In this document: in pieces, positions 4,505-39,807 of the stretch | Numbering within the stretch: the first letter of the stretch is position 1 | How the letters are laid out: every line of letters starts with the position of its first letter | Source: Patescibacteria group bacterium | GTDB taxonomy: Bacteria > Patescibacteriota > Minisyncoccia > RBG-13-40-8-A | NCBI GenBank assembly: GCA_018897295.1 | Contig: JAHILA010000014.1 | Coordinates: 3,390-67,389, forward strand | Direction: 5' to 3' | DNA length: 64,000 nucleotides | Notes under the pieces: generated by a model | What the model was told of the DNA's origin: nothing | The model's database searches: none | The model's input: only the letters and a program-made list of their open reading frames with translations | Translations under genes and position numbers: made by a program

Positions 4505-4512
4505 TTTATGTT

Positions 4513-4578
4513 TTAGCTTAACAAACACATTCTGGTTCGATGTTACATCGGACCAGAGAAGTTTGCTAAGCTAATTTT
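4513..4578 (+). terminator. Nested hairpin followed by a T-run between the pilin gene and pilD. It may act as an attenuator or partial terminator.
   Basis: The outer stem is TTAGCTTA with TAAGCTAA. The inner stem is CTGGT(t)CGATGT with ACATCGGACCAG. It is followed by TTTTGT. Confidence 0.4.
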
Positions 4579-4583
4579 GTAAA

Positions 4584-5348: not shown

Positions 5349-5351
5349 TTT

Positions 5352-5909
5352 ATGAAAAGATTTAAAGGCTATGCCTACCGGCAGGCAGGATTTACGCTTA
5401 TTGAGGTATTGGTAATAATGTTTATTATTTCCACGCTTTCCACTGTGCTTGTGGTTAATTGGCGTAAGAATGAAAAGCGTTATCAGCTTCAGCGTTCAGC
5501 CCAGACAGTTGTTCAAAACTTCAGAAAAGTTCAAAGTATGTCTTTGGCAGGCAAGAATTTGTGTGATCAGGACTCTCCTTGCATCCCTCGGAATTATGGA
5601 GTTCATTTTGGGAAAACCACTTTAACCTCTTATGTCATTTTTGCCGATAAAAATAACAATGGTAAATATGCCAGCGCAGTGGAGACCAATGAACATATAG
5701 AAACAATCTATCTTGAGTCCGGCATAGAACTTTCGTTATCTGTGGACTTAGATGTTGTTTTCTCGGTTCCGGACGGATTCGTTATGATTAATGCGAAACC
5801 GCTGACTACTGAAGCATCTCTGACTATTAAGCGAAGCGGAACAACTTGCCCTTCTTCTAACTGTAAGATCATAATAATAAAGAAAAGTGGCCAAATAACA
5901 ATACAATGA
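5352..5909 (+). CDS. Minor pilin / pseudopilin (GspH/FimT-like)
   Basis: The prepilin N-terminus reads AGFTLIEVLV. The leader is unusually long (MKRFKGYAYRQAG). Confidence 0.7.
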   Translation: MKRFKGYAYRQAGFTLIEVLVIMFIISTLSTVLVVNWRKNEKRYQLQRSAQTVVQNFRKVQSMSLAGKNLCDQDSPCIPRNYGVHFGKTTLTSYVIFADKNNNGKYASAVETNEHIETIYLESGIELSLSVDLDVVFSVPDGFVMINAKPLTTEASLTIKRSGTTCPSSNCKIIIIKKSGQITIQ

Positions 5910-6415
5910 GAAAAATCATATTTGCCAATAAACGAGGTTTTACATTAATGGAAGTGATTGTTGCTGTGGCAATAATTATTACTGCATTGATTTCCTCGTT
6001 AGCATTAATCACTAGCAGTATTTCGAGCATCAGAGAAAATAAGTCAAAAATTATCGCAACAGGCCTTGCCCAAGAGGGCTTGGAAGTTGTTAGAAATATC
6101 AGAGACAATAATTGGCTTATTTATAAAAGAAAAGCTAATGACTGGAGAGACGGATTGTCAGCAGGAAATTATCGGGTTCAATTTGATCAAGAGAGTTTGC
6201 TTTCATTTAGTTCGGTGCCTTTAAAAATAAATACCACAGATGGACGTTATCAGTATTCCAATGGGAATAATACTATTTATTACAGAAAAATAATAATTCA
6301 GGATATAGACGTTGACCAATTTAAAGTAGTCGCTGAAATCAGTTGGCGAGAGGCGGGAAGAGATAATTTAATCAGCGCCGAAACCAGATTTTATAATTGG
6401 TTAAAAGAAGAGTGA
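5906..6415 (+). CDS. Minor pilin (PilV/GspI-like)
   Basis: The N-terminus reads RGFTLMEVIVAVAII. The gene is translationally coupled to its neighbours. Confidence 0.7.
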   Translation: MRKIIFANKRGFTLMEVIVAVAIIITALISSLALITSSISSIRENKSKIIATGLAQEGLEVVRNIRDNNWLIYKRKANDWRDGLSAGNYRVQFDQESLLSFSSVPLKINTTDGRYQYSNGNNTIYYRKIIIQDIDVDQFKVVAEISWREAGRDNLISAETRFYNWLKEE

Positions 6416-6416
6416 T

Positions 6417-6914
6417 ATGAAAAAGGCCATGCCTGCCGGCAGGCAGGGTTTTACATTAATAGAGCTTCTTGTTTCGATGTCCATATTCATAATAGTGATT
6501 ATGGTAGTTTTGGGTTTGTTTTCTGCAGCTATAAAAGCGCAGAGAAAAGCATTTGCTATGCAAGACGCCCAAGAAAATGCTAGATTTTTAATGGAATTTA
6601 TGGCTAAAGAAGTAAGGATGAGTGTAATTACTAGTAGTAATGGAACTTCACCCAATTTGACGCTTACGCGCTCTGACGGCGATAGTGTTACTTATAGTAT
6701 CAGTAGTAATAAAATTTACAGAAATAGTATTCAGGTAAGTTCTGATGAAGTTTATATTTCCGGAACTTTTTACACAGAAGGAGTTGGTTCTGAAGACGGC
6801 TTACAGCCAAAACTGACAATTGCGTTGAAGATTAAGACAACAGGCACTAAAGTCGAGGAAAGGGCCGAGATTAATATCCAAACTACTCTTTGCCAGAGAA
6901 ATCTTGATTTATGA
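6417..6914 (+). CDS. Minor pilin (PilW/GspJ-like)
   Basis: The N-terminus reads QGFTLIELLVSMSIF. The leader is long (MKKAMPAGRQ). Confidence 0.7.
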   Translation: MKKAMPAGRQGFTLIELLVSMSIFIIVIMVVLGLFSAAIKAQRKAFAMQDAQENARFLMEFMAKEVRMSVITSSNGTSPNLTLTRSDGDSVTYSISSNKIYRNSIQVSSDEVYISGTFYTEGVGSEDGLQPKLTIALKIKTTGTKVEERAEINIQTTLCQRNLDL

Positions 6915-7258
6915 AAAAATTAAAAAATAATAAAAAAGGGGCATCACTTCTTCTTGCGCTGTTGATTATATCAGCGGTTTTAAGTATTGCTTTCGGCATT
7001 TCGGAATTAAGTTTAGGAGAAATAAAGATTTCCCGCGATGCGCCTAAATCATTAATTGCTTATTATGCTGCTGATGCCGGAATTGAATGCCAAATGTTTG
7101 CCGACAGATTAAGCAAACCTAATTGTTCAAGCGCCTGCATAGATGTTAATTCTAAAATTTGTTATAAAATAACTATTTCTGGTGTTAGCCCAAAGAGAAC
7201 AATCAAATCTTCTGGCATATATCAGGATATAATAAGAGCTATCGAATTAACATATTGA
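6911..7258 (+). CDS. PilX-like minor pilin / pilus assembly protein
   Basis: A hydrophobic N-terminus and an AYYAADAGIE motif resemble the PilX_N signature. Confidence 0.55.
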   Translation: MKKLKNNKKGASLLLALLIISAVLSIAFGISELSLGEIKISRDAPKSLIAYYAADAGIECQMFADRLSKPNCSSACIDVNSKICYKITISGVSPKRTIKSSGIYQDIIRAIELTY

Positions 7259-8151: not shown

Positions 8152-8222
8152 ATCAGTGTTTATGTTTATTGTTTATGTTTATTGCGGTTTATTACATTTA
8201 TATATCCTGTATTTGTATACAT

Positions 8223-8250
8223 TTCTTCACGATCGAGAAAAAGTGTATAT
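8223..8250 (+). promoter_or_regulatory. Copy 1 of a 28-bp motif, TTCTTcACGATCGaGAAAAagTGTATAT
   Basis: It is near-identical to the motif at 8900-8927 and contains the palindrome CGATCG and a TGTATAT(A) -10-like end. Confidence 0.5.
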
Positions 8251-8280
8251 TTTTTTAAAATAATATGTTATGATGTATTT

Positions 8281-8841
8281 ATGAAATATAAATTACCGTT
8301 TACTGAAAAATTACTTTGGGATTTATATAATTTCAGCCATAAGACAGGAAGATTAATACTTAAAGCGCTTCCTAAAAAACATGGGTTGCCTTTTTCTAGT
8401 TTTAATATATTTAGAGATGAATGGACGAGTGAAAATAAGAATAAATATCTAAGAAAACAAAGTAGGAAAAAATTTGCCCTTTTAGTTTATCGACTTAAAA
8501 AGCAAGGGTATCTAAAAAAATTAAAAATTAAAGATAATTCAGCAATTGCGATTACTCAACAAGGACTAGATAAGATTTTAAGGATTAATTTTAAATTAAT
8601 GGATAAAAAAATCAGAAAAGATAATAAGTGGCAGATGGTTTTATTTGATATCCCTGAGGATAAGAGAAGAGGTAGGGATTTGTTTAGAAATGAATTAAAG
8701 TATCTAGGGTATAAAATGCTTCAAAAAAGTATTTGGGTTTGCCCATATGACACATTAAAAGAAACTAAGGATTTGATTAAAAGATATAATTTAGGAATTT
8801 GGGTAGAATTGCTTTTAGTTAATAAAATTGGGTTAAAGTAG
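8281..8841 (+). CDS. Winged-helix + Cas2/PaaX_C-fold protein; putative transcriptional regulator
   Basis: The C-terminal segment WQMVLFDIPEDKRRGRDLFRNELKYLGYKMLQKSIWVC matches the Cas2 / PaaX_C core pattern (hydrophobic-YD-...-R...-G-Q-SV-C). Start is taken at the internal Met (MKYKLP) rather than the track start 8182. Confidence 0.5.
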   Translation: MKYKLPFTEKLLWDLYNFSHKTGRLILKALPKKHGLPFSSFNIFRDEWTSENKNKYLRKQSRKKFALLVYRLKKQGYLKKLKIKDNSAIAITQQGLDKILRINFKLMDKKIRKDNKWQMVLFDIPEDKRRGRDLFRNELKYLGYKMLQKSIWVCPYDTLKETKDLIKRYNLGIWVELLLVNKIGLK

Positions 8842-14749: not shown

Positions 14750-17700
14750 ATGAAAAAATTATTATCGATTACATTAGCTATCACGACAATTGTTTGGCTG
14801 GCTGGTTCATTTATATATGTCCCAGCTGCTCACGCTGCTGTTGTTGATGGCGACGTTGTAAGCCCTGATGCCACATTTGTTGACGCTGATGGAAACACAT
14901 ACTATCCGTATGATGTTTTTATTGTCAAAATAATTGGCACCAAGACCTTCAAACGTTTAGTTTTAAACCCGCAAGTTTTTGAAAGTTACGGCCACTTAAA
15001 GTGGAGTAATATCAAAACAATCTCAGCTGAGACCGTTAAAGGTTATACTACATCTGCTCTAGTAAGAGCGATTGATGATAGCCCTGTTTATGTGCTCGCT
15101 CCGAATGGAGACAGTGGTACAAAGCAGTGGGTTGATGATTTAACTTGCTTCAATTCAAAGAGTTATGACTGGGATTCAGTTTATACGATTAACGCAACAG
15201 ACAGAGACAATTACTCAACTACAACAAGTTTGTGCGGAACAGGTGGCGGAGCTTTGACGCTTTCATTAGCTTCAGACACACCAGCTGCTTCCACACTTCC
15301 TAACACTGCTCAAGGTGTAACCTTTGTCAAATACAATTTAACAGGTTCAGGAACATTAAACCAGATTGTATTCAAAAGAGATGGAGCTGGCGCTGTTGCA
15401 GATTTTGACGACCTCTACATTTACAAAGATGGAGTTCGTTTAACATCGGGCAGGTCAATTACCACTTCAACCAGTAAGGTTACCTTTATTAATTTAGGAA
15501 TTGTTGCTCCAGCTACATTTGAATTAGTAGCTGACATCAGCGGAACAGCTGGTAATGTTAACTATTTCACTGTTGAAATTGCTTCTGATGTTGTTGCTGA
15601 CACAACTGTTAGCGGAACATTTCCAATTAAGAGTAACACAATGGGAATCAGCGGTACTGCTGCTGGCACAATAACTGTTGCCAGGACTGGCTCTGCTACA
15701 AAAAATGTCACCATTGGCGCCTTAGAACAAGAGATTTCTCAATTTAAGGTAACTGTTGCCACTGAAGGAGCTAATGTCTACAGAATTCAATTATTCAACG
15801 GTGGGACAGCAGACAATAATCTAATTACTAATCTTAAACTTAAAGACAATACAGGAGCAACTGTAGCCACAGCCACAAGTATTGGCTCTAGTGGTTATGT
15901 TTCTTTTGTTTTCAGCACACCTTATTATATTCTAAAAGGTGAAAATGAAATTTTCCACATTTATGCTGATATTGGCGCAACAAAACCAGACAGAACAATT
16001 ATTCTCTATCAGGAATTGGCAACCGATATTTTGGCAAAAGGAACTACTTATGGTTATGGCATGACAGCCACTATTACTAGCTTTGATGCTACTGGTGATG
16101 CTGTTACTGTTACTTGTAAGGGTGGTGACTTAACCTTAAACAAAGTTGGTCCAAATGCCACAAGCATTGGAACTACAACTTCTGACACTGTATTCCTTGA
16201 ATACACAATGTCAGCAGCTGCTGACATTACCATTAAAAGAACAGAATTGATATTCTGTGAGGACACTGATGGCAATGGCACATACAATAACGCTTCCACT
16301 AGTGCTGGCGCTGACATTGAAGATATTAAGATAAAAGAAAAAGACAGCGGAGCCATTGTAATTGGTCCAAAAGACGGAACTTCGTTTAATGACGGTGTCA
16401 GGGCTTCTTGTCCTGGAAGTGTTAACGGTCTTTACGAAGCCTATACTGACACTATTGATTTAGCCGCTGGCACAACAAGAACTTTCCAGGTAACTGCTGA
16501 TATTAAGACCTCTAACACTAATAGTGGTCAACACATAGTGGCTAGTTCCAGAATTAAATTTATTCTTTACAGCTATGCTACAATGATTGGCACTACAGGT
16601 AATGTAAGTTATGTGAAGTATGCCGGAACAAGCGATGCTGTTGATGATTCGGCAATTGCTCCGTCAGGAGATATTGCTGGAGAAGAAATGACTATTGCCG
16701 CAGCAAGCTTAGCTATTACCTTGTCGGCAAGTCCATCAGGAGGTGATGTTACTGCAAATGAAAAAGTATATATCAAGGGCCAGGGCGGAGTAGAAGCAGC
16801 TGGATTCGTATTCACTGCTGGTTCGGCTTCTGATATTACAATCAGCACGATTCAGTTGACTGCTTATACAACAGAAAACACTGCAGTTGCATTGATTGCA
16901 GGAAAAGATACTAATTATGTTAAAGATACTGTTGGCAGTGTTTATATCTATGATAAAGACACTGGAGCAATGGTTCCTGGTTCATCCGCAAAAGGATTCA
17001 CCAGTGGAACAAACTATGAAAATGTTGATTTTACTGGTTTGAGTTGGACAATCACAGCCGGGAACTCCAAGACATTATTGGTAAAAACCGATATTTCTTC
17101 AGCTGCTCCAGCCAGCGCGTCTACAGCAGACACCTGGATTGGATTTGACATTCTTGATGTCAGCGCTGATGTTTCAGCTGTTGACGTAGATGGCAATTCA
17201 GTTGACGGAACAGGCGATGCTTCAAACCCATTAGCTGCTACTGTTAACTACGGTGTTGCTGAATATGGCTCATTGGCAGTTGTCGTTGCTTCTGACACGC
17301 CAGATAAAAGTTTGGCGGTTATGGGCACTACTGATAACGAGGTTTCCAAGTTCAAGCTTACTGGAACTAATGAGGCCTGGTACATTGAGACATTCTCAAT
17401 TGTGCTTGACGATGGCCAAGACGTTAGCTTAGACGACACAGATAACTTCAGCGCACTTAAGCTTAAGTACCAAACCCAAGCTCAGTGGGGTTCAAGTGAC
17501 TGGACAATCAGCACGGGCAAGACCTTTGCGAGTACAGCCAGTTTAGCTTTTTCCTTTACTGGTACTGATAGGATTTATATTCCTAAAGATGATAATTCCT
17601 TTGTCACTGTTTTAGCTAGTATTGATAGCTATGATGGTGGTTCTGGAGGAAAGTCAAAAGTTCCTTTTAGAATGTATCCTATTTCCGGTAGCACTAACTC

Positions 17701-18391
17701 ATTCAAGGTCTATGGCGCTCAATCAGGCAAGCAGTTGTCCACGTTTACTGATCCAACTAGCACAGATTACAATCTGCACTTCGTAACTCGCTCTAAGCCG
17801 GTGTTTGCTAAAGTATCAAGCACTGCTACAAACGAGTTAGCCAGATTTACCATCACTGCTGTTGGTTATGATGTTGTCTTTGACGGAACAGCAGGTACCG
17901 AGATAGACATTGCTAGCGCATGCTTGAGGTTTGATGTTGTTGCTTCAACAACTGACGATGCCACTGTTAATCTTTATCTTTATGACTGGAATGAAAATAT
18001 CGTTGCCAGTAGAGAAGCATTGGGTAGTTTAACCGGAAGTGTAACTAGCGTTTCCTTCGTATTTGAAGAGAAAGATGTTACTATTCCGAGTGGCACAACT
18101 AGAGAACTTCACGTTGACTTGGCTGCAGCAGATGCAAGTACTGACTTCTTAAAGACAGACGAATTCATCTATTTGCAGTTGAGAAATGATGATGGAGGCA
18201 ATTTGGCCACTGGTTCAATGGGCTTCGGAGAAAGAGATATTGTTTGGCACGATAGTACAGCCGAAGAAGGTATAAGTACTGTTGATGGAGATGCAAGCGC
18301 CGAGAGCAGATATGGTATGCCATCTCTGATTAAGAACATTGGCCCATTGCCAATTACTTTCACAATCTTGAGAGGAACAGCAACTCCATAA
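14750..18391 (+). CDS. Giant secreted surface protein (1213 aa) with a shared N-terminal 'KRL-x-LNP' module followed by long Thr/Ser/Gly/Ala-rich beta-rich repeats; S-layer or adhesin-like
   Basis: It has a signal peptide ending in AHA|A. The N-terminal roughly 120 aa are homologous to modules in the 18594, 23076 and 59011 proteins. The rest is low-complexity and Ig-like. Confidence 0.7.
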   Translation: MKKLLSITLAITTIVWLAGSFIYVPAAHAAVVDGDVVSPDATFVDADGNTYYPYDVFIVKIIGTKTFKRLVLNPQVFESYGHLKWSNIKTISAETVKGYTTSALVRAIDDSPVYVLAPNGDSGTKQWVDDLTCFNSKSYDWDSVYTINATDRDNYSTTTSLCGTGGGALTLSLASDTPAASTLPNTAQGVTFVKYNLTGSGTLNQIVFKRDGAGAVADFDDLYIYKDGVRLTSGRSITTSTSKVTFINLGIVAPATFELVADISGTAGNVNYFTVEIASDVVADTTVSGTFPIKSNTMGISGTAAGTITVARTGSATKNVTIGALEQEISQFKVTVATEGANVYRIQLFNGGTADNNLITNLKLKDNTGATVATATSIGSSGYVSFVFSTPYYILKGENEIFHIYADIGATKPDRTIILYQELATDILAKGTTYGYGMTATITSFDATGDAVTVTCKGGDLTLNKVGPNATSIGTTTSDTVFLEYTMSAAADITIKRTELIFCEDTDGNGTYNNASTSAGADIEDIKIKEKDSGAIVIGPKDGTSFNDGVRASCPGSVNGLYEAYTDTIDLAAGTTRTFQVTADIKTSNTNSGQHIVASSRIKFILYSYATMIGTTGNVSYVKYAGTSDAVDDSAIAPSGDIAGEEMTIAAASLAITLSASPSGGDVTANEKVYIKGQGGVEAAGFVFTAGSASDITISTIQLTAYTTENTAVALIAGKDTNYVKDTVGSVYIYDKDTGAMVPGSSAKGFTSGTNYENVDFTGLSWTITAGNSKTLLVKTDISSAAPASASTADTWIGFDILDVSADVSAVDVDGNSVDGTGDASNPLAATVNYGVAEYGSLAVVVASDTPDKSLAVMGTTDNEVSKFKLTGTNEAWYIETFSIVLDDGQDVSLDDTDNFSALKLKYQTQAQWGSSDWTISTGKTFASTASLAFSFTGTDRIYIPKDDNSFVTVLASIDSYDGGSGGKSKVPFRMYPISGSTNSFKVYGAQSGKQLSTFTDPTSTDYNLHFVTRSKPVFAKVSSTATNELARFTITAVGYDVVFDGTAGTEIDIASACLRFDVVASTTDDATVNLYLYDWNENIVASREALGSLTGSVTSVSFVFEEKDVTIPSGTTRELHVDLAAADASTDFLKTDEFIYLQLRNDDGGNLATGSMGFGERDIVWHDSTAEEGISTVDGDASAESRYGMPSLIKNIGPLPITFTILRGTATP

Positions 18392-18593: not shown

Positions 18594-19961
18594 ATGAAAA
18601 AGTTATTTTTAGCAATATTAATAATCCTTTTGGTTTCTTTTTGGTTTATCCCTTCAAATGTTTCAGCCGCAATTATTATTGATGGCGACTTAATTAAAAC
18701 ATCCGACAATCCGGATGTTTATATTGTTAAACTTGTGGATTCCTTAAAATACAAACGTCTGATTCTAAATCCCGAAATTTTCAACCAATACAGCCATCTG
18801 AAATGGGAGAATATCAAAACAGTCAGCCAAACAGAATTAGATGAATATACAATTTCTGATTTGGTTAGGGCAGTTGGCGATGAAAAGGTTTACAAATTAT
18901 ACTCCAATGGCGATACAGGAGAAAGAAGATGGATAAAAACAGCGGAAGATTTTAATGGCTTTGGTTATAAATCAAATGCTATTTATGAAATTAATTCTTA
19001 TGAATGGAACTTTTATGCTACTGGGTTGGATTTAGCATATCAGTCCCCGGAAGCCCCAAAAACGCCAATAATCCCGATACCCCCAACAAGAACAGAAAAT
19101 ATCACTATAAAAGTTCCTGCTGATTATGCCACTATCCAGTCCGCTTTAGACGCTTCAATTAACGGAGACACGATTTCTGTTTCCAAAGGAACTTATAAGG
19201 AAAATATAGTAATTAGCAAAAATGTAAAACTGATTGGCGAGTCAGCCAATTATGTGACTATTGACGGGCAAGGCAATGATTCGGCCATAGTTATTAATGG
19301 CGCAAGTGATTTTTCAATTCAAAGATTTATCATCAAAAGCCAAGACCAAAAGGCAGTTTATTGCGTTGGTAATAGTAAAACCAAAGGAGTGATTAAAAAT
19401 ATTATTTTTAAAGATTCAAAATGGGGAGTATACACTGAAAACGATTGCGAATTAGTGATTCTTAATAATATTATTTACAATAATCGCGCATTGGATAACA
19501 AAGACGGCGGAGGAATTTTTATTAAAGATAATCTTTCCTATGGCATTACCATTGAAATTCGCAACAATACTATTGATGATAATCACCATGGCATCTGGAT
19601 GGACAATTCTAAGGTTAAAACCATAAATAATATCGTCAGTTCAAACATGGGCAGCGGGATAAGTACGGGCATATATTTAAAAAGCGGCGAGATAAACAAT
19701 AGTTACAGCGATATTTGGGGCAATGGCGCTAATTCTTTTGGTGGAGTGGGATTTGGCGATGGGGGTATTTCTTTGGATCCGCGTTTTGTCAGTACCAGGG
19801 AAAGAAACTATCGCTTGATCTGGGGTTCTGGGGATGTTTCGCCTTGTATTGATGTTGGAAGCCCAAATACCAGTTATAATGACGGAAAGCTTTTTACTGG
19901 CACTAATTACAGAAGCGATATGGGCGCTTATGGCGGATCGGATAATGGCGGCTGGGAATAA
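18594..19961 (+). CDS. Secreted protein with the shared N-terminal module plus a right-handed parallel beta-helix (PbH1) repeat domain
   Basis: It has a signal peptide and a module homologous to the 14750 N-terminus. Repeats of the form NNxI.NN / IRNNTIDDNHHGIWMD are typical of pectate-lyase-fold beta-helices. Confidence 0.65.
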   Translation: MKKLFLAILIILLVSFWFIPSNVSAAIIIDGDLIKTSDNPDVYIVKLVDSLKYKRLILNPEIFNQYSHLKWENIKTVSQTELDEYTISDLVRAVGDEKVYKLYSNGDTGERRWIKTAEDFNGFGYKSNAIYEINSYEWNFYATGLDLAYQSPEAPKTPIIPIPPTRTENITIKVPADYATIQSALDASINGDTISVSKGTYKENIVISKNVKLIGESANYVTIDGQGNDSAIVINGASDFSIQRFIIKSQDQKAVYCVGNSKTKGVIKNIIFKDSKWGVYTENDCELVILNNIIYNNRALDNKDGGGIFIKDNLSYGITIEIRNNTIDDNHHGIWMDNSKVKTINNIVSSNMGSGISTGIYLKSGEINNSYSDIWGNGANSFGGVGFGDGGISLDPRFVSTRERNYRLIWGSGDVSPCIDVGSPNTSYNDGKLFTGTNYRSDMGAYGGSDNGGWE

Positions 19962-19968
19962 CAAGAAA

Positions 19969-21027
19969 ATGGATATTAAGAAAAAAATACTTTTTTTGGT
20001 GACTCAATCCGAGTTTGGCGGAGCCCAGCGCTTTATTTATAATTTGGTAACCAATTTAAATCAGGATAAATATAGTATTGCAGTCGCAGCAGGATTAGAA
20101 GGTGATAATGAAAACGGACTTTTATTTGCTTTAGAGAAAAAAGGGATTGATACAGGACATTTAAGATATCTTAGACGGTCAATTAATCCTTTTTTTGATT
20201 TCTTGGGCGTTATTGAGATTTTAAAATTGATAAAAAAAGAAAAGCCGGATATCTTATTTTTATGCAGTTCCAAAGCAGGATTTTTAGGGAGTTGGGCAGG
20301 AAAAAACAAAATAAAAAAAGTAATTTACAGAATCGGTGGATGGACTTTTAATGACCCTTGGCCAAAATGGAAAAAGAAATTGTATATTTGGATAGAGAAA
20401 ATAAGCGCTGGATGGAAAGATTACATTATCAATAATGCTGAATCAGACAAACAGCAGGCAATAAAAATAGGTATTAAGCCACAAAGGGGAATCTTAACCA
20501 TTTACAATGGAATTGATGCAGATAAACTGAAATTTTTGAATAAAGGAGAAGCAGGAAATTTCCTGCGATTAAATAATTCGGATTTCGTTGTTGGAACTAT
20601 TGCCAATGATTACCCGACTAAGGGATTAAAATACCTAAGAGAAGTCGAAGGAAAATTACAGGATATTAAGCTTGTAATATTGAGCAATATTCCTGACGCG
20701 TATAAATATTTAAAGGCATTTGACATCTTTGTTCTGTCGTCTGTAAAAGAAGGGTTTCCTTGGGTAATTTTAGAAGCAATGTCTGCCGGAGTGCCAATTA
20801 TTGCTACAAAAGTTGGAGCAATACCGGAAATTATCCAAAACAATGAAAATGGCATCTTGATAGAGCCAAAAAGCCCGAAAGCAATTATTGATGCAGTAAA
20901 GTTGTTAATGGATAATAAAGATTTAATGAGGAAATTAGCAATTAATGGCAGAAAAACAGTTATAGAAAAATTTAATCTGGAAAAAATGATTAATAGATAT
21001 GTAGAATTATTCGAATCTACGAATTGA
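19969..21027 (+). CDS. Glycosyltransferase family 4 (GT-B, retaining)
   Basis: The C-terminal EGFPWVILEAMSAGVPIIATKVGAIPEI motif fits the EX7E signature region. Start is set at ATG 19969, just after the upstream stop. The track ORF 19834 is an in-frame upstream extension that overlaps the previous gene. Confidence 0.8.
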   Translation: MDIKKKILFLVTQSEFGGAQRFIYNLVTNLNQDKYSIAVAAGLEGDNENGLLFALEKKGIDTGHLRYLRRSINPFFDFLGVIEILKLIKKEKPDILFLCSSKAGFLGSWAGKNKIKKVIYRIGGWTFNDPWPKWKKKLYIWIEKISAGWKDYIINNAESDKQQAIKIGIKPQRGILTIYNGIDADKLKFLNKGEAGNFLRLNNSDFVVGTIANDYPTKGLKYLREVEGKLQDIKLVILSNIPDAYKYLKAFDIFVLSSVKEGFPWVILEAMSAGVPIIATKVGAIPEIIQNNENGILIEPKSPKAIIDAVKLLMDNKDLMRKLAINGRKTVIEKFNLEKMINRYVELFESTN

Positions 21028-21094
21028 TATGCGAATCTACAAATAATTCGTTGATTCGGATAAATATTCGTATCATTCGGATAATATATTTATG
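21011..21094 (+). repeat. Copy A of a recurrent intergenic cis-element of about 85 bp; forward orientation
   Basis: CGAATCTAC direct repeats with about 20-bp spacing and ATTCGGATA direct repeats with 21-bp spacing. Near-identical copies occur at 21945-22036 (inverted), 26586-26673, 27074-27120 and 28838-28884. Confidence 0.85.
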
Positions 21095-21895
21095 AGGACT
21101 TGTTTTCTCTCAATTGATGTTGAATCCTCCTACGCCCGGACTAAAGTCGGGGCTTCGAAGGACAAGAATCCGTTTGAGTCAGTAGATAAACTTGACTGTA
21201 TTCTTGATATTTTCAGAAAACATAATGTTCCGGCTACCTTGTTTGTGACTGGCGAAGTTTTGGAATATTGCCCTGATTTAGTTAAAAAATGGTCCAAGGA
21301 TTTTGAAATCGGATGCCATAATTATTGGCACGTCCAGCTGGATAAAATTGATTTAGTAGAAAGGGAGAGGCAGGTTAAAAATTTCGTTAATTTATACAAA
21401 GGTATTTTCGGGTTTTCGCCAAAAGGATTCAGGGCGCCGAGAAATGTGATTGATAACCAGCAATTCCCGATTTTAGAAAGATATGATTTTATTTATGATG
21501 CCAGTGTTTTTCCGCGTTACCCCTGGCGTATCGGAGCATATGTCGGATACAGAGGCAGAGCGCCAATTGCGCCGTATTGGCCGAGCAGAAAGAATTACAG
21601 GGAAAAGGGGGACATAAAGATTCTCGAAATTCCCGAAAGTCCGGCTTTGTTCGATGTTCCGTTTGTCGGAACATGGTTAAGGAAACTGGGCGTGAAGTTT
21701 TTTAAATTTATTTTTAAAATAAAAAAGCCGGAATTTATTAGTTTTAGTATGCACTCTTGGGATGGAATTGAGTTTGAAAACGGCAAGAACAGCGGTAAAA
21801 AATATTTAAAACAACTTGATGAAATGCTGGGATTTTTAAAGAAAATAGGGTATAATTTTAAGAGCGGAGAGCAAATTTCATCTGAAATTGCTTGA
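21092..21895 (+). CDS. Polysaccharide deacetylase (carbohydrate esterase family 4, NodB-like)
   Basis: CE4 motifs are present: SIDVE (motif 1 variant), CHNYWH (HxxxH) and FRAPRN (RxPY-like). Confidence 0.65.
   Translation: MRTCFLSIDVESSYARTKVGASKDKNPFESVDKLDCILDIFRKHNVPATLFVTGEVLEYCPDLVKKWSKDFEIGCHNYWHVQLDKIDLVERERQVKNFVNLYKGIFGFSPKGFRAPRNVIDNQQFPILERYDFIYDASVFPRYPWRIGAYVGYRGRAPIAPYWPSRKNYREKGDIKILEIPESPALFDVPFVGTWLRKLGVKFFKFIFKIKKPEFISFSMHSWDGIEFENGKNSGKKYLKQLDEMLGFLKKIGYNFKSGEQISSEIA
21127..21166 (+). repeat. Degenerate in-frame copy of the GC-rich element family inside the CE4 gene
   Basis: cctacgcc...ggggcttcg..gg.caag shares its 5' and 3' signatures with the 62401 copy. Confidence 0.4.
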
Positions 21896-21944
21896 CAGGT
21901 TTTTTTATGCTATAATTAAAAGGTAATAAATAATAATATATTAT

Positions 21945-22036
21945 CCGAATGATACGAATATGTATCCGAATCAACGAATTATTTGTAGATTCGCATATCA
22001 ATTTGTAGATTCGAATAATAAATTCATAAATTTATG
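21945..22036 (-). repeat. Copy B of the recurrent cis-element, reverse complement of copy A. Copies A and B form an inverted repeat of about 80 bp flanking the CE4 gene.
   Basis: The reverse complement matches copy A with about 2 mismatches over about 78 bp. It ends at the ATG of the 22034 gene. Confidence 0.85.
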
Positions 22037-23032
22037 AAAAACAATAAACAATTTCTTAGCGTATTAATAAGCGTTTTAATCTGCGTGTTTGTGTTTGGGG
22101 TAATTGTTTATGCCACAACAACAATCGGAGACAATATTTCCGCAGGCGGGACTTTAAGCGGAACCAATTTTTCAACAAATGATACTTATTACAACACGTT
22201 TGTAGGTACGGGGATAGAAACAACAACCACAGCCAGCTACAATGTATTTGTCGGTTATCGAGCAGGATATTCAAATGATGATGGAGCAGCAGATAGTAAT
22301 ACGGCCGTTGGTTATAATGCCCTTAACCTTAACACCACTGGTGATTCTAATTCGGCAATAGGTTTTTCTGCTCTTGGGAAAAATACTACCGGTATTGCGA
22401 ATTCAGCAATAGGAGTGGGTGCTCTTGGAGGTAATACTATAGGAGGTTATAATACTGCTGTTGGATATATGGCGGGTTATGCTGGAGTTGGAGAATACAA
22501 TAATAATACTCTTGTAGGTTTTAGGGTGGGTTATGGTAGTAGTGGTGTGTTTTCAAATAATACCGTAATGGGTTATGATGCAGGATATAATCTTACAGGA
22601 AATAATAATATTCTTTTTGGATATCAGGCAGGAGACGATTTAACGGCAGGAAGGAATAATATCGTTATTGGATATGATATTGATACTCTTTCTGCCACAG
22701 CAGATAATTATATGAATATTGGAGGATTATTATTTGGAGATTTATCTACTGCCAGCGCCAAGTATCTGGGCATTCTTGATTCTTCGCCCGCTTACACTCT
22801 TTCTGTTGACGGCACTGCATCTGTTTCGGGAACTACATATTTAGGCGATACTTATTTTAGCGGTGTGGTTTCTGCGTCTGATGCGAATGGTATGTTAGTG
22901 GGGGAAGGAATAAGTATCAAGACTGGAATTGCCTCGCCGAGCGGGGCCTGTGGTACAGCTGGAAGTCTTTATCTGGATACAACAGGGGGTATAAGTAGCT
23001 GTGGCACAGATAATAAGTGGGATCCTAAGTAA
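22034..23032 (+). CDS. Secreted repeat protein with Hep_Hag / tail-fibre-like Gly-Asn-Ala repeats; paralogue of the 60837 gene
   Basis: It has a signal peptide and repeats of the form NTAVGYNAL..NTTGDSNSAIGFSALG. The N-terminal about 65 aa and C-terminal about 60 aa are almost identical to the 60837 protein. Confidence 0.7.
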   Translation: MKNNKQFLSVLISVLICVFVFGVIVYATTTIGDNISAGGTLSGTNFSTNDTYYNTFVGTGIETTTTASYNVFVGYRAGYSNDDGAADSNTAVGYNALNLNTTGDSNSAIGFSALGKNTTGIANSAIGVGALGGNTIGGYNTAVGYMAGYAGVGEYNNNTLVGFRVGYGSSGVFSNNTVMGYDAGYNLTGNNNILFGYQAGDDLTAGRNNIVIGYDIDTLSATADNYMNIGGLLFGDLSTASAKYLGILDSSPAYTLSVDGTASVSGTTYLGDTYFSGVVSASDANGMLVGEGISIKTGIASPSGACGTAGSLYLDTTGGISSCGTDNKWDPK

Positions 23033-23075
23033 TTAGGAACTATAAGTTATTAATTTAATTTAATTTGTTTAATTT

Positions 23076-24368
23076 ATGCGCAAAAAAACTTTAACAATAG
23101 TATTTCTCTTGATTTTTACAGTAAGTATAATCAGCTGGCCATTATTGGCTTTAGCTGCTGATGAAGTTAGTTTTAGCGCTGACACTACAATTTTATTAGG
23201 TAATGGTGTATATTTAACCATATTAAATACAGGGGTCTGCGATGCAATCGTCGTTGGCACAAGTACTTTAACCGTTTCTCTTTCTACTAACTCTTCTTTA
23301 GAAATAAGATCATATAGTAAGTACGTATTGAACAATTCCTTGTTTACAACTGATTGCGAGCATAGCCAGAGTTATTCTCGATTAGTACTTACTGGACAAG
23401 CCGTAGCTACGGATTTGGTGATTACTCCCAATACTTCCGCAACCTGTCCTTCTTGGGGAAGTAGTGGCGGTGGAGGTGGCGGGGCTACTACGACTTCTGC
23501 TCAGCCAACTACAACTACTGGTCAAGTAACTGCCACCGCTTCTGGCGGAGGAAAGACAACTTTTATTACCACTGAAACTGCTACGGCCACAGTTGATTTA
23601 CCGGCAAGCGCGGTTACTTCATCTACAAATATAGCAATATCAATAGAAACCAAGGCAACGGTTACGTCTAGTAAACCAGTGCCATCAGGACAAAATGTGG
23701 TGGGCGGATATATCTATAATTTTACTGCTACTGCTGGGAGTACTGCAATAACTACATTTTCCAAAGACATTACACTGACCTTTACTTATACCGATAGCCA
23801 GGTAACAGGGTTAAATGAAGATACATTAAAGGTTTATTATTGGGACGGAAGTAAATGGGCAGCTTTAACTGGAACACTGAATAAAACGAATAACACGATT
23901 ACTGTTTTAACAAATCATTTTACCTATTTCGCAATATTGGGAGATTCGGGTACAACATCAACAACAATGGCTAAACCAGAAGATTATGGATTAAAAGAAG
24001 GAGATTTAATCAGGGCTCAAGGGGATTTTGACATCTTTATTATCAGCCAGTATGGCTATAAAAGATTATTCCTTAATCCGACTATCTTTAATATGTACGG
24101 CCATCTTAATGGAGGATGGAATGCAGTAAAAACCGTATCTACGGCAACCAGAGATGCGTTTATTACTTCTACTCATTATCGCTTTGTAGATGAAGATAAA
24201 GTATATCATCTGGAAGTAACGGGCGAGGATACTGGTACTTTGCATTGGCTGAATATGACTGGAGAGAATTTTTTGGCTCAAGGAGGAAAATCTGAGGATA
24301 TCTTCACTATTAATAAATCAGAATTGGACTGGTATTCTAAAGGCGCTGATATAACTTCCTTAAAATAA
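23076..24368 (+). CDS. Secreted surface protein with a Thr/Gly-rich linker and the shared module at its C-terminus
   Basis: It has a signal peptide, a low-complexity GGGGGATTTSAQPTTTTGQ linker and a C-terminal 125 aa region about 75 % identical to the 59011 protein C-terminus. Confidence 0.7.
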   Translation: MRKKTLTIVFLLIFTVSIISWPLLALAADEVSFSADTTILLGNGVYLTILNTGVCDAIVVGTSTLTVSLSTNSSLEIRSYSKYVLNNSLFTTDCEHSQSYSRLVLTGQAVATDLVITPNTSATCPSWGSSGGGGGGATTTSAQPTTTTGQVTATASGGGKTTFITTETATATVDLPASAVTSSTNIAISIETKATVTSSKPVPSGQNVVGGYIYNFTATAGSTAITTFSKDITLTFTYTDSQVTGLNEDTLKVYYWDGSKWAALTGTLNKTNNTITVLTNHFTYFAILGDSGTTSTTMAKPEDYGLKEGDLIRAQGDFDIFIISQYGYKRLFLNPTIFNMYGHLNGGWNAVKTVSTATRDAFITSTHYRFVDEDKVYHLEVTGEDTGTLHWLNMTGENFLAQGGKSEDIFTINKSELDWYSKGADITSLK

Positions 24369-26578: not shown

Positions 26579-26585
26579 AATTTTA

Positions 26586-26673
26586 TTATCCGAATCTACA
26601 AATTAATATGCGAATCTACAAATAATTCGTTGATTCGGATACATATTCGTATCATTCGAATAATATATTTATG
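26586..26673 (+). repeat. Copy C of the recurrent cis-element (forward), in a divergent promoter region
   Basis: It is near-identical to copy A and lies between the divergent DegT (-) and GxxExxY (+) genes. Confidence 0.85.
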
Positions 26674-27073: not shown

Positions 27074-27120
27074 CATTCGTTGATTCGGATACATATTCGT
27101 ATCATTCGGATAATACCATG
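27074..27120 (+). repeat. Copy D (right half only) of the recurrent cis-element
   Basis: cattcgttgattcggatacatattcgtatcattcggataata lies immediately upstream of the 27118 ATG. Confidence 0.8.
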
Positions 27121-28325: not shown

Positions 28326-28862
28326 ATGAAAAAAGTTATTCCATTTTTAGCAATAGCTTTTGTGGTCATCGGAGCAGCGCTGAGATTTGCTCCGCATTTT
28401 CCGAATTTTGCGCCAATTGCGGCAATGGCATTATTCGGCGGAGTTTATCTTAATAAAAAATATGCCTTGATCGTTCCGATAGTTGCGATATTTGTCAGTG
28501 ATTTGTTTATTGGTTTTTACGATGCCAAATTAATGGCAGGGGTATACTTAAGTTTTATTTTGGTTGGTTTAATCGGATTATTTATTAAGAAACATAAAAA
28601 TATAGGCACAATAATCGGCGGAACTGTTTTAGGTTCTGTTTTGTTTTTTCTGATTACCAATTTTGCTGTTTGGGCGTTCTATTCGTGGTATCCGCACACT
28701 TTAAATGGCTTAAGTCAGTGTTTTACAATGGCATTGCCATTTTTCAGAGGTACGTTAATTGGTGATTTGTTCTATGTCGCAATTCTATTTGGAGTTTATG
28801 AAGTGGTTATAGCTTCGGTTAGAAAAAAACATTTATTAGTAGATTCGAATATTAATTTGTAG
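28326..28862 (+). CDS. Integral membrane protein with 5-6 TM helices; possibly a small-substrate transporter component
   Basis: It is polytopic and hydrophobic with a FAPHFPNFAPIAAMALFGG N-terminus. Its function is not recognised. Confidence 0.3.
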   Translation: MKKVIPFLAIAFVVIGAALRFAPHFPNFAPIAAMALFGGVYLNKKYALIVPIVAIFVSDLFIGFYDAKLMAGVYLSFILVGLIGLFIKKHKNIGTIIGGTVLGSVLFFLITNFAVWAFYSWYPHTLNGLSQCFTMALPFFRGTLIGDLFYVAILFGVYEVVIASVRKKHLLVDSNINL

Positions 28863-28884
28863 ATTCGAATAATATATTTATATG
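28838..28884 (-). repeat. Copy E of the recurrent cis-element (left module inverted, fused to the conserved AATAATATATTTAT end)
   Basis: gtagattcgaatattaatttgtagattcgaataatatatttat lies upstream of the 28882 ATG. Confidence 0.75.
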
Positions 28885-35682: not shown

Positions 35683-36803
35683 AGCTAATCTATTTAACAT
35701 CTAATCAATTTCCTTCACAAATGGCCAATAGTCAGCAGATTTTAAATACTTCAAGAGGGTTTTATAAGTTATTAAATAAAGATTTTTTGTTGATTATTGC
35801 TAATGCTTTTGAGTCGTTAAAAGGCGTTAATTATAAAGAAGTGGGCTTTAATAAAAAAGGACTGAGAACTTTTTATTATTTTTTTTGGACGTTTAAATTC
35901 TTTTTTAAAAATATTAACAAAAAAGATTATAATATTGTTTATTGTAGGGATTCAAACTTGCTTTTAATATTGAGCCTTTTGAAAAATCTTTTCCATTATA
36001 AAATAGCTTTAGAGTATCATAGATTTGAAAAGACATCAAAAGAAAAATTTATTATAAAACATGTTGATTATTTTATTGTTATTACGAATTATTTTAAGGA
36101 CTTGCTTATAAAAAAATTTAATGTTTCTAAGGATAAAATTATTGTTGTGCCCGATGCAGTTGATTTAAAGGCATTTGAGGCAATTGATATTTCTACACAA
36201 TCCATCCGCCACAAATTAAATTTACCCCTCGATAAAAATCTAATTGGTTTTATTGGCAGGTTTAAAACAAAAGGCCAGGAAAAAGGCATAAAAACAATGA
36301 TAGAATCGCTTCGATTTTTAGACGATTTAGACATAAGTATGTGTTTTGTTGGAGGAACAGAAGACGAAATAGAAGAATATAAAACAATGGCTGATAAATA
36401 TAATTTTGGACATAAGTGCATTTTTATAAAATATCAATTGACAGAAATGGTTCCGTTTTATGCGAAGGCTATGGATATTCTTACTATGCCATTTCCTTGG
36501 ATAGAGCATTATGCTTATTATATTTCACCAATGAAAATGTTTGAATATATGGCCGCCGGGAAACCAATTGTGGCTTCAGATTTACCGTCAATTAGAGAAA
36601 TTCTCAACAATAATAACGCAATCTTAATAGCGCCAAATAACCCCAAAATGCTGGCAGAGGGAATTAAAACCATTTTGAATGATTCATTTTTAGCAGAAAA
36701 GATTTTAAGCCGGGCGTCAGAGGATGTTAAAAAATACACATGGGATAAACGGGCCGAGAGAATAATAGATTTTTTAAAAAAAGATGAAAATATTATTAAT
36801 TAA
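35679..36803 (+). CDS. Glycosyltransferase (GT4-like, GT-B fold)
   Basis: A C-terminal FEYMAAGKPIVASDLPSIREIL motif is present. Confidence 0.65.
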   Translation: MKLIYLTSNQFPSQMANSQQILNTSRGFYKLLNKDFLLIIANAFESLKGVNYKEVGFNKKGLRTFYYFFWTFKFFFKNINKKDYNIVYCRDSNLLLILSLLKNLFHYKIALEYHRFEKTSKEKFIIKHVDYFIVITNYFKDLLIKKFNVSKDKIIVVPDAVDLKAFEAIDISTQSIRHKLNLPLDKNLIGFIGRFKTKGQEKGIKTMIESLRFLDDLDISMCFVGGTEDEIEEYKTMADKYNFGHKCIFIKYQLTEMVPFYAKAMDILTMPFPWIEHYAYYISPMKMFEYMAAGKPIVASDLPSIREILNNNNAILIAPNNPKMLAEGIKTILNDSFLAEKILSRASEDVKKYTWDKRAERIIDFLKKDENIIN

Positions 36804-38118
36804 ACCAAAATCATTTTTCAGCGCCAAGGGGGCTGGTCCACCGCTTAGTTTAATGTATATTGCTTCCTTCTTGAAACAAGGTGGCCATCAGGTGATTTTA
36901 AGGGATTTCATGGTCTTTAAGGGAGATATGAAAGAAGAATTAGAAAAATTAATAAAAGAAGAAAATATCAAAATAGCCGGTGTCACTTGTAATTCTCACG
37001 AGCGATTTGAATCTTTTGACGTTATTAAATTGCTTAAAAAAATTGATTCAAATATAATTACTATTTTAGGTGGACCCCATCCAACCATTTGTCCTCAGGA
37101 AACAATTAAAAATTTACCCGAATTGGATATTTTAGTTACAAATGATGGAGAGAATGCAATGAGAGTAATTATTGATTGTTTGAATAGCAAGAAAGATTTT
37201 GAAAATATTGGAGGCATCATTTATAGAACCAGACAAGGCGCGATTAAAGAAAATCACGTTGGTCGTATAGTAGTAAACCTGGACGAATATCCTTTTCCAG
37301 ATTTTAATTTAATCAATATGGATGATTATCAGCTTACGGTACCCATTAAAGGTAAACCTATGTCAGTACCGATAATTAGTAGCCGCGGATGTCCTTTTAA
37401 TTGCGGTTTTTGTGCTGCCAAAGAAACAAATTATGGTCGAATAAGATTTCGTTCTATTGACAATATAATTGAGGAATTAAAAATTTTATTGCCTAAGTTT
37501 CCCGGTTATCATATTTTCATTTATGATGATCATTTTTTAGTAAATAAAGATAGAATATTGGAGTTTTGTCAAAAAGTTAAAAAGGAAAATTTAAAATTTA
37601 AATGGGCCTGTTATGGCAGAGTTGATTCTATAGATGAAGAAATTGTTACAGCAATTAAAGAGGTTGGTTGTGTTATGATTTCTTTTGGTATTGAATCCGG
37701 CAGTAAAAAAATGTTGAAAAAAATGAATAAATTAATTTTACCCAATCAAATTATAAAGGCGGTTAAAATAGTTAAAAAACATGGTATTTCTGCTCGCGGT
37801 TCGTTTATTTTTAATTATCCAGACGAAAATATTTTTGACGTTATAAAAACTTTTTGGTTGATATTTAGATTAAAATTAACTCCTGAAGAATTTGCTATTG
37901 GGCCTTATACGGTATTATATCCAGGCACTCAATTATTTGCTGATTATAAAAATAAATGCTTGCCAGAAAATTTTAATTGGAATAAAAAATATGAAAATTT
38001 GCCTAATTATAAAGAAGTGCCGATTTATCAACCAATATTTTTTTCTTTACGGCTTTGGTTTATTCATTTTTTAAGGAAAATTCATAAAGCTTTTAATATT
38101 TTAAAATCTAAATTATGA
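36784..38118 (+). CDS. B12-binding-domain radical SAM enzyme
   Basis: It has a B12-binding N-domain and SSRGCPFNCGFCAA. Confidence 0.8.
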   Translation: MKILLIKPKSFFSAKGAGPPLSLMYIASFLKQGGHQVILRDFMVFKGDMKEELEKLIKEENIKIAGVTCNSHERFESFDVIKLLKKIDSNIITILGGPHPTICPQETIKNLPELDILVTNDGENAMRVIIDCLNSKKDFENIGGIIYRTRQGAIKENHVGRIVVNLDEYPFPDFNLINMDDYQLTVPIKGKPMSVPIISSRGCPFNCGFCAAKETNYGRIRFRSIDNIIEELKILLPKFPGYHIFIYDDHFLVNKDRILEFCQKVKKENLKFKWACYGRVDSIDEEIVTAIKEVGCVMISFGIESGSKKMLKKMNKLILPNQIIKAVKIVKKHGISARGSFIFNYPDENIFDVIKTFWLIFRLKLTPEEFAIGPYTVLYPGTQLFADYKNKCLPENFNWNKKYENLPNYKEVPIYQPIFFSLRLWFIHFLRKIHKAFNILKSKL

Positions 38119-39188
38119 CAGTTTGTTTTTTTGGCACATATGAACAAAGTTTTTCCCGAAACGCCGTTTTGATTAAGGGATTAAAAGAAAACGGAGTAGA
38201 GATTATTGAATGTTGTTCCAGATTTTTAGGCTGGAAGAAATTTCCTATTCTTGTTTTCAGGTTAATAAAAAAACATCGGCAAATTAAAGATAAATATGAT
38301 TGTATAGTAGTTGGCTTTCCAGGTCATTACATTATGTTTTTGGCAAAGATTTTAAGCAAAAAACCAGTTATTTTTGATGTTTTTGCTTCTAAATACATTA
38401 CTGAAATTGAAAGGAAAAAACTAGGTACAAATTCTTTAAAAGCCAAATTTTATTATTTTGCTGATTGGTTTTCCTGTAAATTAGCCGATAAGATTTTATT
38501 AGATACAGAAGAACATATTAAATATTTTGTTAAAACTTTTAAATTGCCAAGGAATAAATTCGAAAGAATTTTTGTTGGGACGATTGAGGATGTTTTTTGT
38601 CCTCGACCTCAAATTTATCATGAATGTTTTACGATTCTTTTTTATGCCAAGGTTACTCCAATGCATGGTTTCGAGCATATTATCAATGCGGCAAAAATTT
38701 TAGAAAAAGAAAAAGATATTTGTTTTGAAATAATCGGCAAAGGAAAACTATATGAAGATAAGATAAAAAATTTAGATAATTTAACCAATATTAAATTAAT
38801 TGATCAAATAGCCTATGAGGAATTGCCAAAACATATTCAAGAGGCCGATGTGTGTTTGGGAATTTTTGGTGGAACTCAAAAAGCGATGCTTGTTATTCCC
38901 AATAAAGTATATGAGTCAATGGCCATGGGGAAGCCATTTATTACGGGAGATTCTCGTGCCGTGCGCGAATTGTTGATAAATAAAGAGAGCGTTCTTTTTT
39001 GTAGAATGGCCGATTCGAATGATTTAGCCGACAAAATTATTGAATTAAAACACGAAGAGGCAATGAGAAAGAAAATTTCTTATGGCGCCAGAAAGGTTTT
39101 TGAAGAACGGGCAAGTTCTGTTGTTATTGGAAAACAATTAAAAGAGATTTTATTTTTAATGGTAGACAAAAATGAAAGAAAAAATTAA
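38115..39188 (+). CDS. Glycosyltransferase, GT-B fold (GT4/GT1-like)
   Basis: An E..MAMGKPFITGDSRAVRELL C-terminal motif is present and the N-terminal half has an acceptor-binding Rossmann fold. Confidence 0.6.
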   Translation: MTVCFFGTYEQSFSRNAVLIKGLKENGVEIIECCSRFLGWKKFPILVFRLIKKHRQIKDKYDCIVVGFPGHYIMFLAKILSKKPVIFDVFASKYITEIERKKLGTNSLKAKFYYFADWFSCKLADKILLDTEEHIKYFVKTFKLPRNKFERIFVGTIEDVFCPRPQIYHECFTILFYAKVTPMHGFEHIINAAKILEKEKDICFEIIGKGKLYEDKIKNLDNLTNIKLIDQIAYEELPKHIQEADVCLGIFGGTQKAMLVIPNKVYESMAMGKPFITGDSRAVRELLINKESVLFCRMADSNDLADKIIELKHEEAMRKKISYGARKVFEERASSVVIGKQLKEILFLMVDKNERKN

Positions 39189-39807
39189 AAAAATAATTCC
39201 TAATTTTTATACTAAGGCCAGGAAAACTTATTTTGGTAAAAACTCAAATTCTCTTAGAAGATTTTCTACTTATTGGTATTTGAAACTGAAATACAGTTTG
39301 TTTTCTATAGAAGAGAAAAATATTAAACTGCACCTGGGTTGCGGTCGTCAAAAAAAGGATGGATTTATAAATATTGATTACAATAAAACAAAGATAACCG
39401 ATTATGTATTAAATGTAATTAATTTGCCGTTCCCCCCTGGATCAATTGAGCGAATAGAATGTTATCACTTAATAGAACATTTTTCGATAAAAGAAATTCC
39501 TTATGTTTTTTCAAATTGGTATAAAATTTTAAAACCAGGGGGAGAGTTGGTTATGGAGTTTCCGGATTTTGATAAAAATATAGAAGCATATTTAAAAGAA
39601 GGGGACGAAAAAAGATTATTTAACATTTTTGGCGCCCAAAGATTTTTAGGCGATGTTCATCTTTGGGGCTGGAATTATGAACGTATAAAAACAGAATTAG
39701 AAAAGTACGGTTTTATAGGGATTAAACAAGAAGAACCTAGGGATTACCATATAAAAGAGGAAGATTGTATTAGGGTTGTGGCATGTAAAATAAAACAGAA
39801 AATATGA
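39172..39807 (+). CDS. Class I SAM-dependent methyltransferase (Methyltransf_11/23-like)
   Basis: LHLGCGRQKKDGFINID and ILKPGGELVMEFPD motifs are present. Confidence 0.7.
   Translation: MKEKIKKIIPNFYTKARKTYFGKNSNSLRRFSTYWYLKLKYSLFSIEEKNIKLHLGCGRQKKDGFINIDYNKTKITDYVLNVINLPFPPGSIERIECYHLIEHFSIKEIPYVFSNWYKILKPGGELVMEFPDFDKNIEAYLKEGDEKRLFNIFGAQRFLGDVHLWGWNYERIKTELEKYGFIGIKQEEPRDYHIKEEDCIRVVACKIKQKI

Follow-up and report, generated by a model that had tools for sequence, protein, structure and literature searches.

Bacteria of the Candidate Phyla Radiation (CPR) are host-dependent episymbionts. Elsewhere, the Vlp, Vsp and Vsa proteins of Mycoplasma form multigene families of variable surface proteins headed by a conserved leader, and Neisseria pilE/pilS and Borrelia vlsE are gene-conversion systems. 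With regard to how CPR/Patescibacteria cells recognize and hold their hosts, little is known past type IV pili (PMC12206443). Trimeric tailspikes are known to carry C-terminal autochaperone domains with critical cysteines (PMC3357383). Here we compare with these systems two genes, A and B, found in a 64,000-nucleotide (nt) stretch of a Patescibacteria group bacterium (assembly GCA_018897295.1, contig JAHILA010000014.1, positions 3,390 to 67,389; hereafter the window, in whose coordinates positions are given). Our analysis suggests, with a probability that we put at roughly 72%, that A and B encode modular exported surface fibres whose ends are kept by selection and whose modules reassort over evolution.

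Gene A (22034-23032, + strand) was called as an open reading frame (ORF) of 332 amino acids (aa), and gene B (60837-61898, + strand; P0001, NCBI locus tag KKF60_00390) as one of 353 aa, which starts 23 nt past the stop of the gene at 59011-60813. Both are complete ORFs, each with its own start codon and leader, and their architecture is of an exported type. In A, the leader (aa 1-30; 22034-22123), with a VYA|TTT cleavage-type site and a helix in the AlphaFold2 (AF2) model, is followed by the body (aa 31-251; 22124-22786; type C1), which consists of a conserved N-body and then eight 17-residue repeats predicted to form a beta-roll. The neck (aa 252-289; 22787-22900) has an LSVDG.AS core, and the C-terminal knob (aa 290-332; 22901-23029; type K1) is small and beta-rich, with invariant C306, C323 and W329. 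B has the same kind of architecture with nine repeats, one of which has no counterpart as a whole in A, and a knob of type K2. The two proteins share 65% aa identity (tblastn, E 1e-117) and are each other's sole relatives in the window, as expected of the paralogues that an earlier note on this DNA had taken them for.

Similarity between the two is concentrated in blocks. Specifically, 61 of the first 66 residues are identical, including 35 of the 36 residues of the N-body (aa 31-66), and 56 of 57 residues are shared in a C-terminal block (A aa 209-265, NIVIGYD...DGTASVS; 22658-22828). Between these blocks the repeat core has diverged, and the knob (the last ~45 residues) is 55% identical, so the earlier statement that the core and the extreme C-terminal cysteine-containing knob differ was borne out by alignment. 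At the DNA level, blastn aligned the 5' parts at 82.8% over 309 nt (22016-22324 vs. 60820-61127) and the 3' parts at 73.6% over 459 nt (22583-23035 vs. 61446-61901). The anticipated layout of conserved ends and a divergent core was thus seen, with 83-87% DNA identity in the conserved segments. The same note had described almost identical DNA over the first ~200 nt, which overstates the match: identity is 87.4% over 198 nt, and the longest exact matches are 29, 27, 26 and 23 nt. It had also placed the 3' conservation in the last ~180 nt, when the conserved C block (84.2% at the DNA level) lies ~200-375 nt before the stop, upstream of the knob, and the last ~130-180 nt are the diverged portion.

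To evaluate what keeps the ends alike, synonymous (pS) and non-synonymous (pN) differences between A and B were estimated per block. The leader (codons 1-30) gave pS 0.53 and pN 0.07, the N-body (codons 31-66) pS 0.33 and pN 0.012, and the conserved C block pS 0.52 and pN 0.035; in the repeat core pS was 0.65 to about 1. For the C block, the pN value arises from codon-family switches of serine and leucine in more than one step, by which the amino acid is kept, and a TCN/AGY switch of serine is among the differences in the conserved blocks. As background we compared this genome with a syntenic relative (JGI Ga0378408_0000014) in orthologous genes for housekeeping and the envelope; these genes differ by pS 0.44-0.64 between the two genomes, which are related at species level. 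Since the silent divergence in the ends is close to this orthologue background and amino acid change is near zero, these values point to strong purifying selection on the protein, in leader, N-body and neck, not to recent gene conversion, as what has kept the ends. The proposal that conserved ends betray gene conversion or a shuffling of cassettes, as known from phase-variable adhesins, does not agree with a pS of 0.33-0.53 set against that background.

The orthologous loci of the syntenic relative indicate how the modules have moved. At the B locus, blastn against the relative's contig (L001) gave two alignments, 53707-60926 (84%) and 61737-63971 (83%), and none in the intervening stretch. 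The first break, at 60926, is the exact end of the B leader, and the other lies inside the neck; the segment between them (60927-61736, + strand), which holds the body and most of the neck, has no DNA homology to the orthologue and is a replaced module, with 810 nt of B standing opposite an unrelated 1089 nt of the relative's gene P0007. Both genes keep the leader and knob K2 at background identity (89% aa identity between the knobs), and the bodies of P0007 and of P0004, a gene at a different locus in another genome, share 79-82% identity. The A locus lies between a polysaccharide deacetylase gene and a FemAB-like gene. In the window it holds two genes, A and its neighbour N1, and in the relative (L007 7988-11864, equivalent to L009, L008 and L018) a four-gene array of three tandem family genes and an N1-like gene. 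The three tandem genes (289, 357 and 323 aa) bear the leader and have unrelated bodies. Their leader DNA is 89-93% identical within the array vs. 72-88% between genomes, and because the leaders are more alike within the array, this suggests some local concerted evolution or recent duplication there. The positions of the loci are conserved between genomes that are 80-84% identical. As judged from these alignments, module replacement and change of gene number at fixed loci are real, on an evolutionary time scale.

Leader, neck and knob are common to a family of ~15 relatives whose bodies are otherwise unrelated (P0002-5, P0007, P0009, P0011, P0012, P0043, P0116, the 357-aa gene of L007, here r357, L016, and a leader-bearing L017 fragment ended by the contig edge). 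Module typing distinguished at least eight body types and at least six knob types, which combine freely. Body C1 occurs with five knobs (A with K1, B with K2, P0002 with K3, r357 with K4, P0003 with K5), knob K1 is found on three body types and K3 on four, and the neck variants sort the genes in a third, different grouping. The knob types are only 27-55% identical to each other. Gene A is itself a mosaic: its body is closest to that of r357, its positional orthologue (79% at the DNA level), its knob to that of P0004 (76%), and its neck is nearer to that of P0011 of the relative (86.5%) than to that of the positional orthologue. The sequence comparisons therefore support an exchange of bodies and of knobs, between paralogues as well as orthologues, over evolutionary time. 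Of the suggested cassette shuffling, the part that stands is module exchange over such times, as seen in the body replaced at an orthologous locus and in the incongruent groupings of body, neck and knob; the idea of a programmed variation cassette does not.

Family members were found in one GTDB species representative (Paceibacterota SMAG_U14235), with a weak match in Portnoybacteria (scan of genome contigs), and on six JGI metagenome contigs; an IMG/VR scan returned none on viral contigs. On this sampling, the family is specific to a narrow Paceibacteria-type lineage of Patescibacteria/CPR. Our literature searches found no description of a leader-neck-knob family. It is of the mosaic fibre/adhesin kind, with a leader and a knob that have been uncharacterised so far.

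The repeat of the body, N-x-A-h-G-x-x-A-h-x-x-N-T-T-G-x-x, is widespread: an exhaustive HMMER search returned over 43,000 proteins that contain it, and many of these are giants with multiple repeats. No significant Pfam or NCBIfam match was obtained for A, B or the neighbouring secreted proteins N1 and N2 (for A and B, none at E<=1), and the homologue P0008 reached 18.5 bits with YadA_head, below the cutoff of 25. Structure prediction, which the earlier note had proposed and which was run on monomers, returned a beta-roll fold. The AF2 model of A has a mean predicted local distance difference test (pLDDT) score of 72, rising to 84-96 over residues 130-230, with an N-terminal helix (residues 4-25) and a single strand in each repeat. 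A Foldseek search of the PDB had no significant result, and the family profile found no match among PDB sequences. At the level of fold, structural matches were to CbpF, UspA1 and BpaC, phi29 gp12, and left-handed beta-helix (LbH) acyltransferases. In our modelling the body of A and B is a left-handed parallel beta-roll. The description of the two as Hep_Hag/tail-fibre-like thus holds for the fold and fails at the sequence level.

Taken as a whole, A and B are built as follows. The leader would carry the protein across the cytoplasmic membrane, or anchor it there, by the Sec route. Next comes the variable body, a beta-roll of 17-residue repeats like those of adhesin heads and phage spike or fibre shafts, probably forming a trimeric fibre, and after it the conserved neck and the small two-cysteine knob at the C-terminus. 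Recombination within the conserved leader and neck has reassorted bodies and knobs into a combinatorial mosaic, as the comparison with relatives shows, and the product would probably be a fibre or adhesin on the surface, serving to diversify the binding targets of an episymbiont-type cell. A location at the cell surface and a trimeric state of A and B are inferred, and attachment is most plausibly their role, given the analogy to the heads of adhesins and to tail fibres. Our arguments need to be weighed against several points. The family census is small (~15 members) and metagenome-derived. The pS of the N-body (0.33) is somewhat below that of the other blocks, and an old conversion tract might conceivably lie there. 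The AF2 model is of only moderate quality overall, with aa 30-120 and the neck poorly modelled.

With regard to the ends themselves, the leader is nearly invariant in 14 family members with unrelated bodies. It also heads an LVIVD beta-propeller protein (L017 1-840, - strand; Pfam E 7.5e-75), whose C-terminus is cut by the contig end. Conservation this unusual, which extends to unrelated cargo, speaks for a role that depends on the sequence itself. The leader may be a Sec signal peptide with cleavage at VYA|TTT, or it may stay on the protein and anchor its N-terminus in the membrane. Inspected by eye, the A/B leader has no canonical lipobox (VLIC is followed by hydrophobic residues), and we did not favour its reading as a lipoprotein signal. 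Its reading as a type IV pilin leader was considered and rejected.

The neck core LSVDG.AS is invariant in the 12-member family alignment. A fibre protein of 1156 aa from Paceibacterota SMAG_U14235 (L012 78-3548) has three copies of the neck motif, the last of which stands directly before the S74-type chaperone sequence "SDERLKKNI"; a PAEE-rich tail comes after that. The neck may thus be a generic joint. The knob has the family pattern G.AS...C..GSLY...C....W. Modelled alone, it is predicted to be a small beta-rich domain (pLDDT 65-89), and no structural neighbour was found for the model. It appears to occupy the place that the S74 autochaperone takes in distant homologues, and it may be a C-terminal module for folding or trimer registration, a distal binding tip, or both. 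It is also possible, if unlikely in our view, that leader and knob make up an undescribed system for the export, anchoring or assembly of surface fibres in Paceibacteria-type CPR, with the leader as a dedicated anchor or sorting signal on unrelated cargos (beta-roll fibres and LVIVD propellers) and the knob as a new fold that, in place of the S74 autochaperone, registers the trimer or forms the tip. If this were true, reassortment of bodies and knobs would provide these host-dependent cells with a combinatorial host-attachment repertoire.

A related proposal, also unlikely in our view, would make leader and knob a dedicated pair of sorting or anchoring signals, much as a signal peptide is paired with a C-terminal sorting domain, and the middle a swappable passenger, so that the knob would be neither tip nor folding nucleus. 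The two do occur together in 14 of 14 complete members, on at least eight unrelated bodies, and the leader is found on the LVIVD cargo too. Moreover, the glycine, cysteine and tryptophan positions of the knob are invariant, and the comparison of the B and P0007 knobs (89% aa identity, pS 0.35) indicates purifying selection. However, no candidate sorting enzyme is co-located, and the knob falls into at least six types that, at 27-55% identity, are more variable than typical sorting domains. The LVIVD protein, with its C-terminus lost, does not inform on the knob, and the family is too small for a test of co-occurrence with a processing enzyme.

The modular fibres that we favour must further be distinguished from an active pair for antigenic or receptor variation, in which the ends would be substrates for ongoing conversion or cassette exchange that switches core or knob within the population. 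The layout of conserved ends and divergent middle is real, module exchange did occur in the history of the family, the higher leader identity within the relative's array is a hint of concerted evolution, and directly before A there is an inverted repeat (85 nt, 98%). However, the pS of the conserved blocks is that of the species-level background, and the longest identical tract measures 29 nt. A search of the window for silent cassettes found two copies, both full genes, and no truncated or silent copy; no segment of either gene has a further copy in the DNA of the window. Scans with Tandem Repeats Finder (TRF) and for inverted repeats detected no 51-nt DNA tandem repeat, simple-sequence tract or switch inside the genes. 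No integrase, invertase, recombinase or reverse transcriptase was found among the checked genes, namely those flanking both loci, and the public contigs that carry A or B all encode the same proteins. We consider active variation very unlikely. We also rejected a reading of A and B as targets of a diversity-generating retroelement (DGR), since there is no reverse transcriptase among the annotated genes and no extra A/B copy in the window. For genome scanning more generally, a pattern of conserved ends and variable middle should be tested by synonymous-site divergence before gene conversion is named.

An origin of A and B as tail-fibre or tail-spike genes of a prophage, a tailocin or another phage-derived element would be in keeping with the repeat region, which matches, with E values between 1e-26 and 1e-11, the PHROGs phrog_4636 (tail spike), phrog_6002 and phrog_23837 (both virion structural proteins), and with the many distant homologues that end in the endosialidase-type chaperone PF13884, one homologue carrying Mtd_N. 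A Sec-type leader is, however, atypical of virion proteins, and no phage genes were seen in the window or in the syntenic and other family loci, where the context is glycan synthesis, secA/secDF, GroEL or DnaB. The IMG/VR result, and loci that hold their position between genomes 80-84% identical, add to this, and we regard a phage origin as highly improbable. That the beta-roll is an ice-binding or other non-adhesive surface is hardly credible: the best structural match is indeed a plant ice-recrystallisation-inhibition protein, but this is a match of fold common to many beta-roll and beta-helix proteins, and adhesin heads score nearly equal.

A and B stand at opposite edges of a surface-glycan cluster of ~38 kb, B being just upstream of secA-secDF. 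The order in the window is a type IV pilus set (2-7258), ClpB, an extracytoplasmic function (ECF) sigma/anti-sigma pair, two large secreted proteins, the glycan cluster and secA-secDF. The cluster comprises GT4/GT2 glycosyltransferases, methyltransferases, five B12-binding radical S-adenosylmethionine (SAM) genes, Wzx, Bac_transf, Wzy_C and PMT_2. Within it, 36784-49116 holds all five of these radical-SAM genes together with several SAM methyltransferases and a fusion of radical-SAM/SPASM and methyltransferase parts, which suggests that the surface sugars are heavily methylated or otherwise modified. The pilus set, ~15 kb upstream of A, looks complete: it has two T2SSE ATPases, one with an MshEN domain and the other possibly PilT-like, besides a T2SSF platform protein, a prepilin peptidase and four N_methyl pilins. 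Adjoining the pilus and protease genes, 8182-8841 encodes a protein of 219 aa in which a domain is PaaX_M/Cas2-like (E 3.6e-20); we noticed no CRISPR array in its vicinity.

Each of the two genes has a secreted protein as its neighbour, N1 (430 aa; 23076-24368, + strand) beside A and N2 (600 aa; 59011-60813, + strand) beside B. As had been noted earlier, these share a C-terminal module (23967-24362 in N1, 60415-60810 in N2), which we found to be 132 aa long and 76% identical (tblastn). This module is the only part of N1 conserved in the relative's N1-like gene, and the relative has an N2 orthologue upstream of P0007 (89% aa identity). A module of ~110-130 aa with the pattern DGDLI…KRL.LNP.IF..YGHL.W..VKTVS…KVY.L…GEDTG…W also occurs at 18681-19034 and 14909-15217, and is thus present in four secreted proteins, with no Pfam match. 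It is C-terminal in N1 and N2, and directly past the signal peptide in a 1213-aa ORF (14750-18391) and in a beta-helix/NosD-like ORF (18594-19961). This arrangement may be that of a wall- or glycan-binding anchor domain. N2 additionally contains an HELQH motif (aa 180-184; 59548-59562), followed by NELRSEY. The motif hints at a domain of the zinc metalloprotease type, although searches of Pfam and of PDB sequences were negative.

A palindromic intergenic element of 85 nt (21935-22019) ends 15 nt before the ATG of A and is an inverted copy of 21006-21090. This AT-rich element of ~85 nt occurs five times within 8 kb, 92-100% identical (the fifth copy being that beside A): 21006-21090 and 26582-26669 on the - strand, the left half at 27075-27115 (- strand) and the right half at 28833-28874 (+ strand). 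It holds two TATCCGAAT and two TTGTAGATTCG motifs and folds into a long predicted hairpin (dG -27.9 kcal/mol, z -4.7). Its ends lie directly before start codons in both orientations, namely those of A, the deacetylase gene, DegT, ORF 26671 and ORF 28882. The syntenic relative lacks the element at these positions, but in another genome the right end of the element stands before the P0004 gene as well. A scan of the whole window returned no Rfam family, for the element or otherwise. It could be an element like repetitive extragenic palindromes (REP) or miniature inverted-repeat transposable elements (MITE), or a shared bidirectional promoter cassette. The two copies at 21006-22019, a 98%-complementary inverted repeat of 85 nt, bracket the polysaccharide deacetylase gene (21092-21895) exactly. 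In sequence terms this is the geometry of an invertible segment, and an inversion would leave the sequence beside A unaltered.

The A/B family provides a concrete candidate for attachment specificity in these bacteria, because its members are exported, tail-fibre/YadA-like proteins with conserved ends and reassorted bodies and tips, encoded at the edges of a glycan cluster. The small unannotated C-terminal domain and the unusually conserved leader are targets for experimental study.

When compared with the Mycoplasma families, A and B are similar in that several paralogues occur per genome and a near-invariant leader heads divergent bodies, with a tandem array in one relative. They differ from these families and from pilE and vlsE in that there is no lipobox and there are no silent cassettes in the window, no poly-nucleotide tract or site-specific recombinase was found, and the conserved A/B DNA is only 83-87% identical.

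With trimeric autotransporter adhesins (YadA, EibD, UspA1, BoaA/BpaC), A and B share the left-handed parallel beta-roll fold of the head. The head repeat of YadA-like proteins is, however, about 14 residues long, compared with 17 in A and B, which have no match to PF05658 YadA_head (formerly Hep_Hag) at E<=1. Their N-terminus is a Sec-type leader or anchor, and in Pfam and NCBIfam searches they lack the C-terminal YadA anchor barrel, having a two-cysteine knob of ~45 aa instead; for want of the barrel, we rejected an identity as trimeric autotransporters. CPR bacteria are generally considered to have no outer membrane.

Compared with phage tail fibres and tailspikes (PF13884 Peptidase_S74), A and B are chromosomal, have a signal leader and a non-phage context, and have no family member on viral contigs; they lack the S74 domain and bear the two-cysteine knob in its place. 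Nonetheless, their repeat shaft shares homology with tail-spike and virion families in PHROGs, and they resemble phage fibres in having a conserved neck followed by a C-terminal module and in the exchange of modules at conserved junctions.

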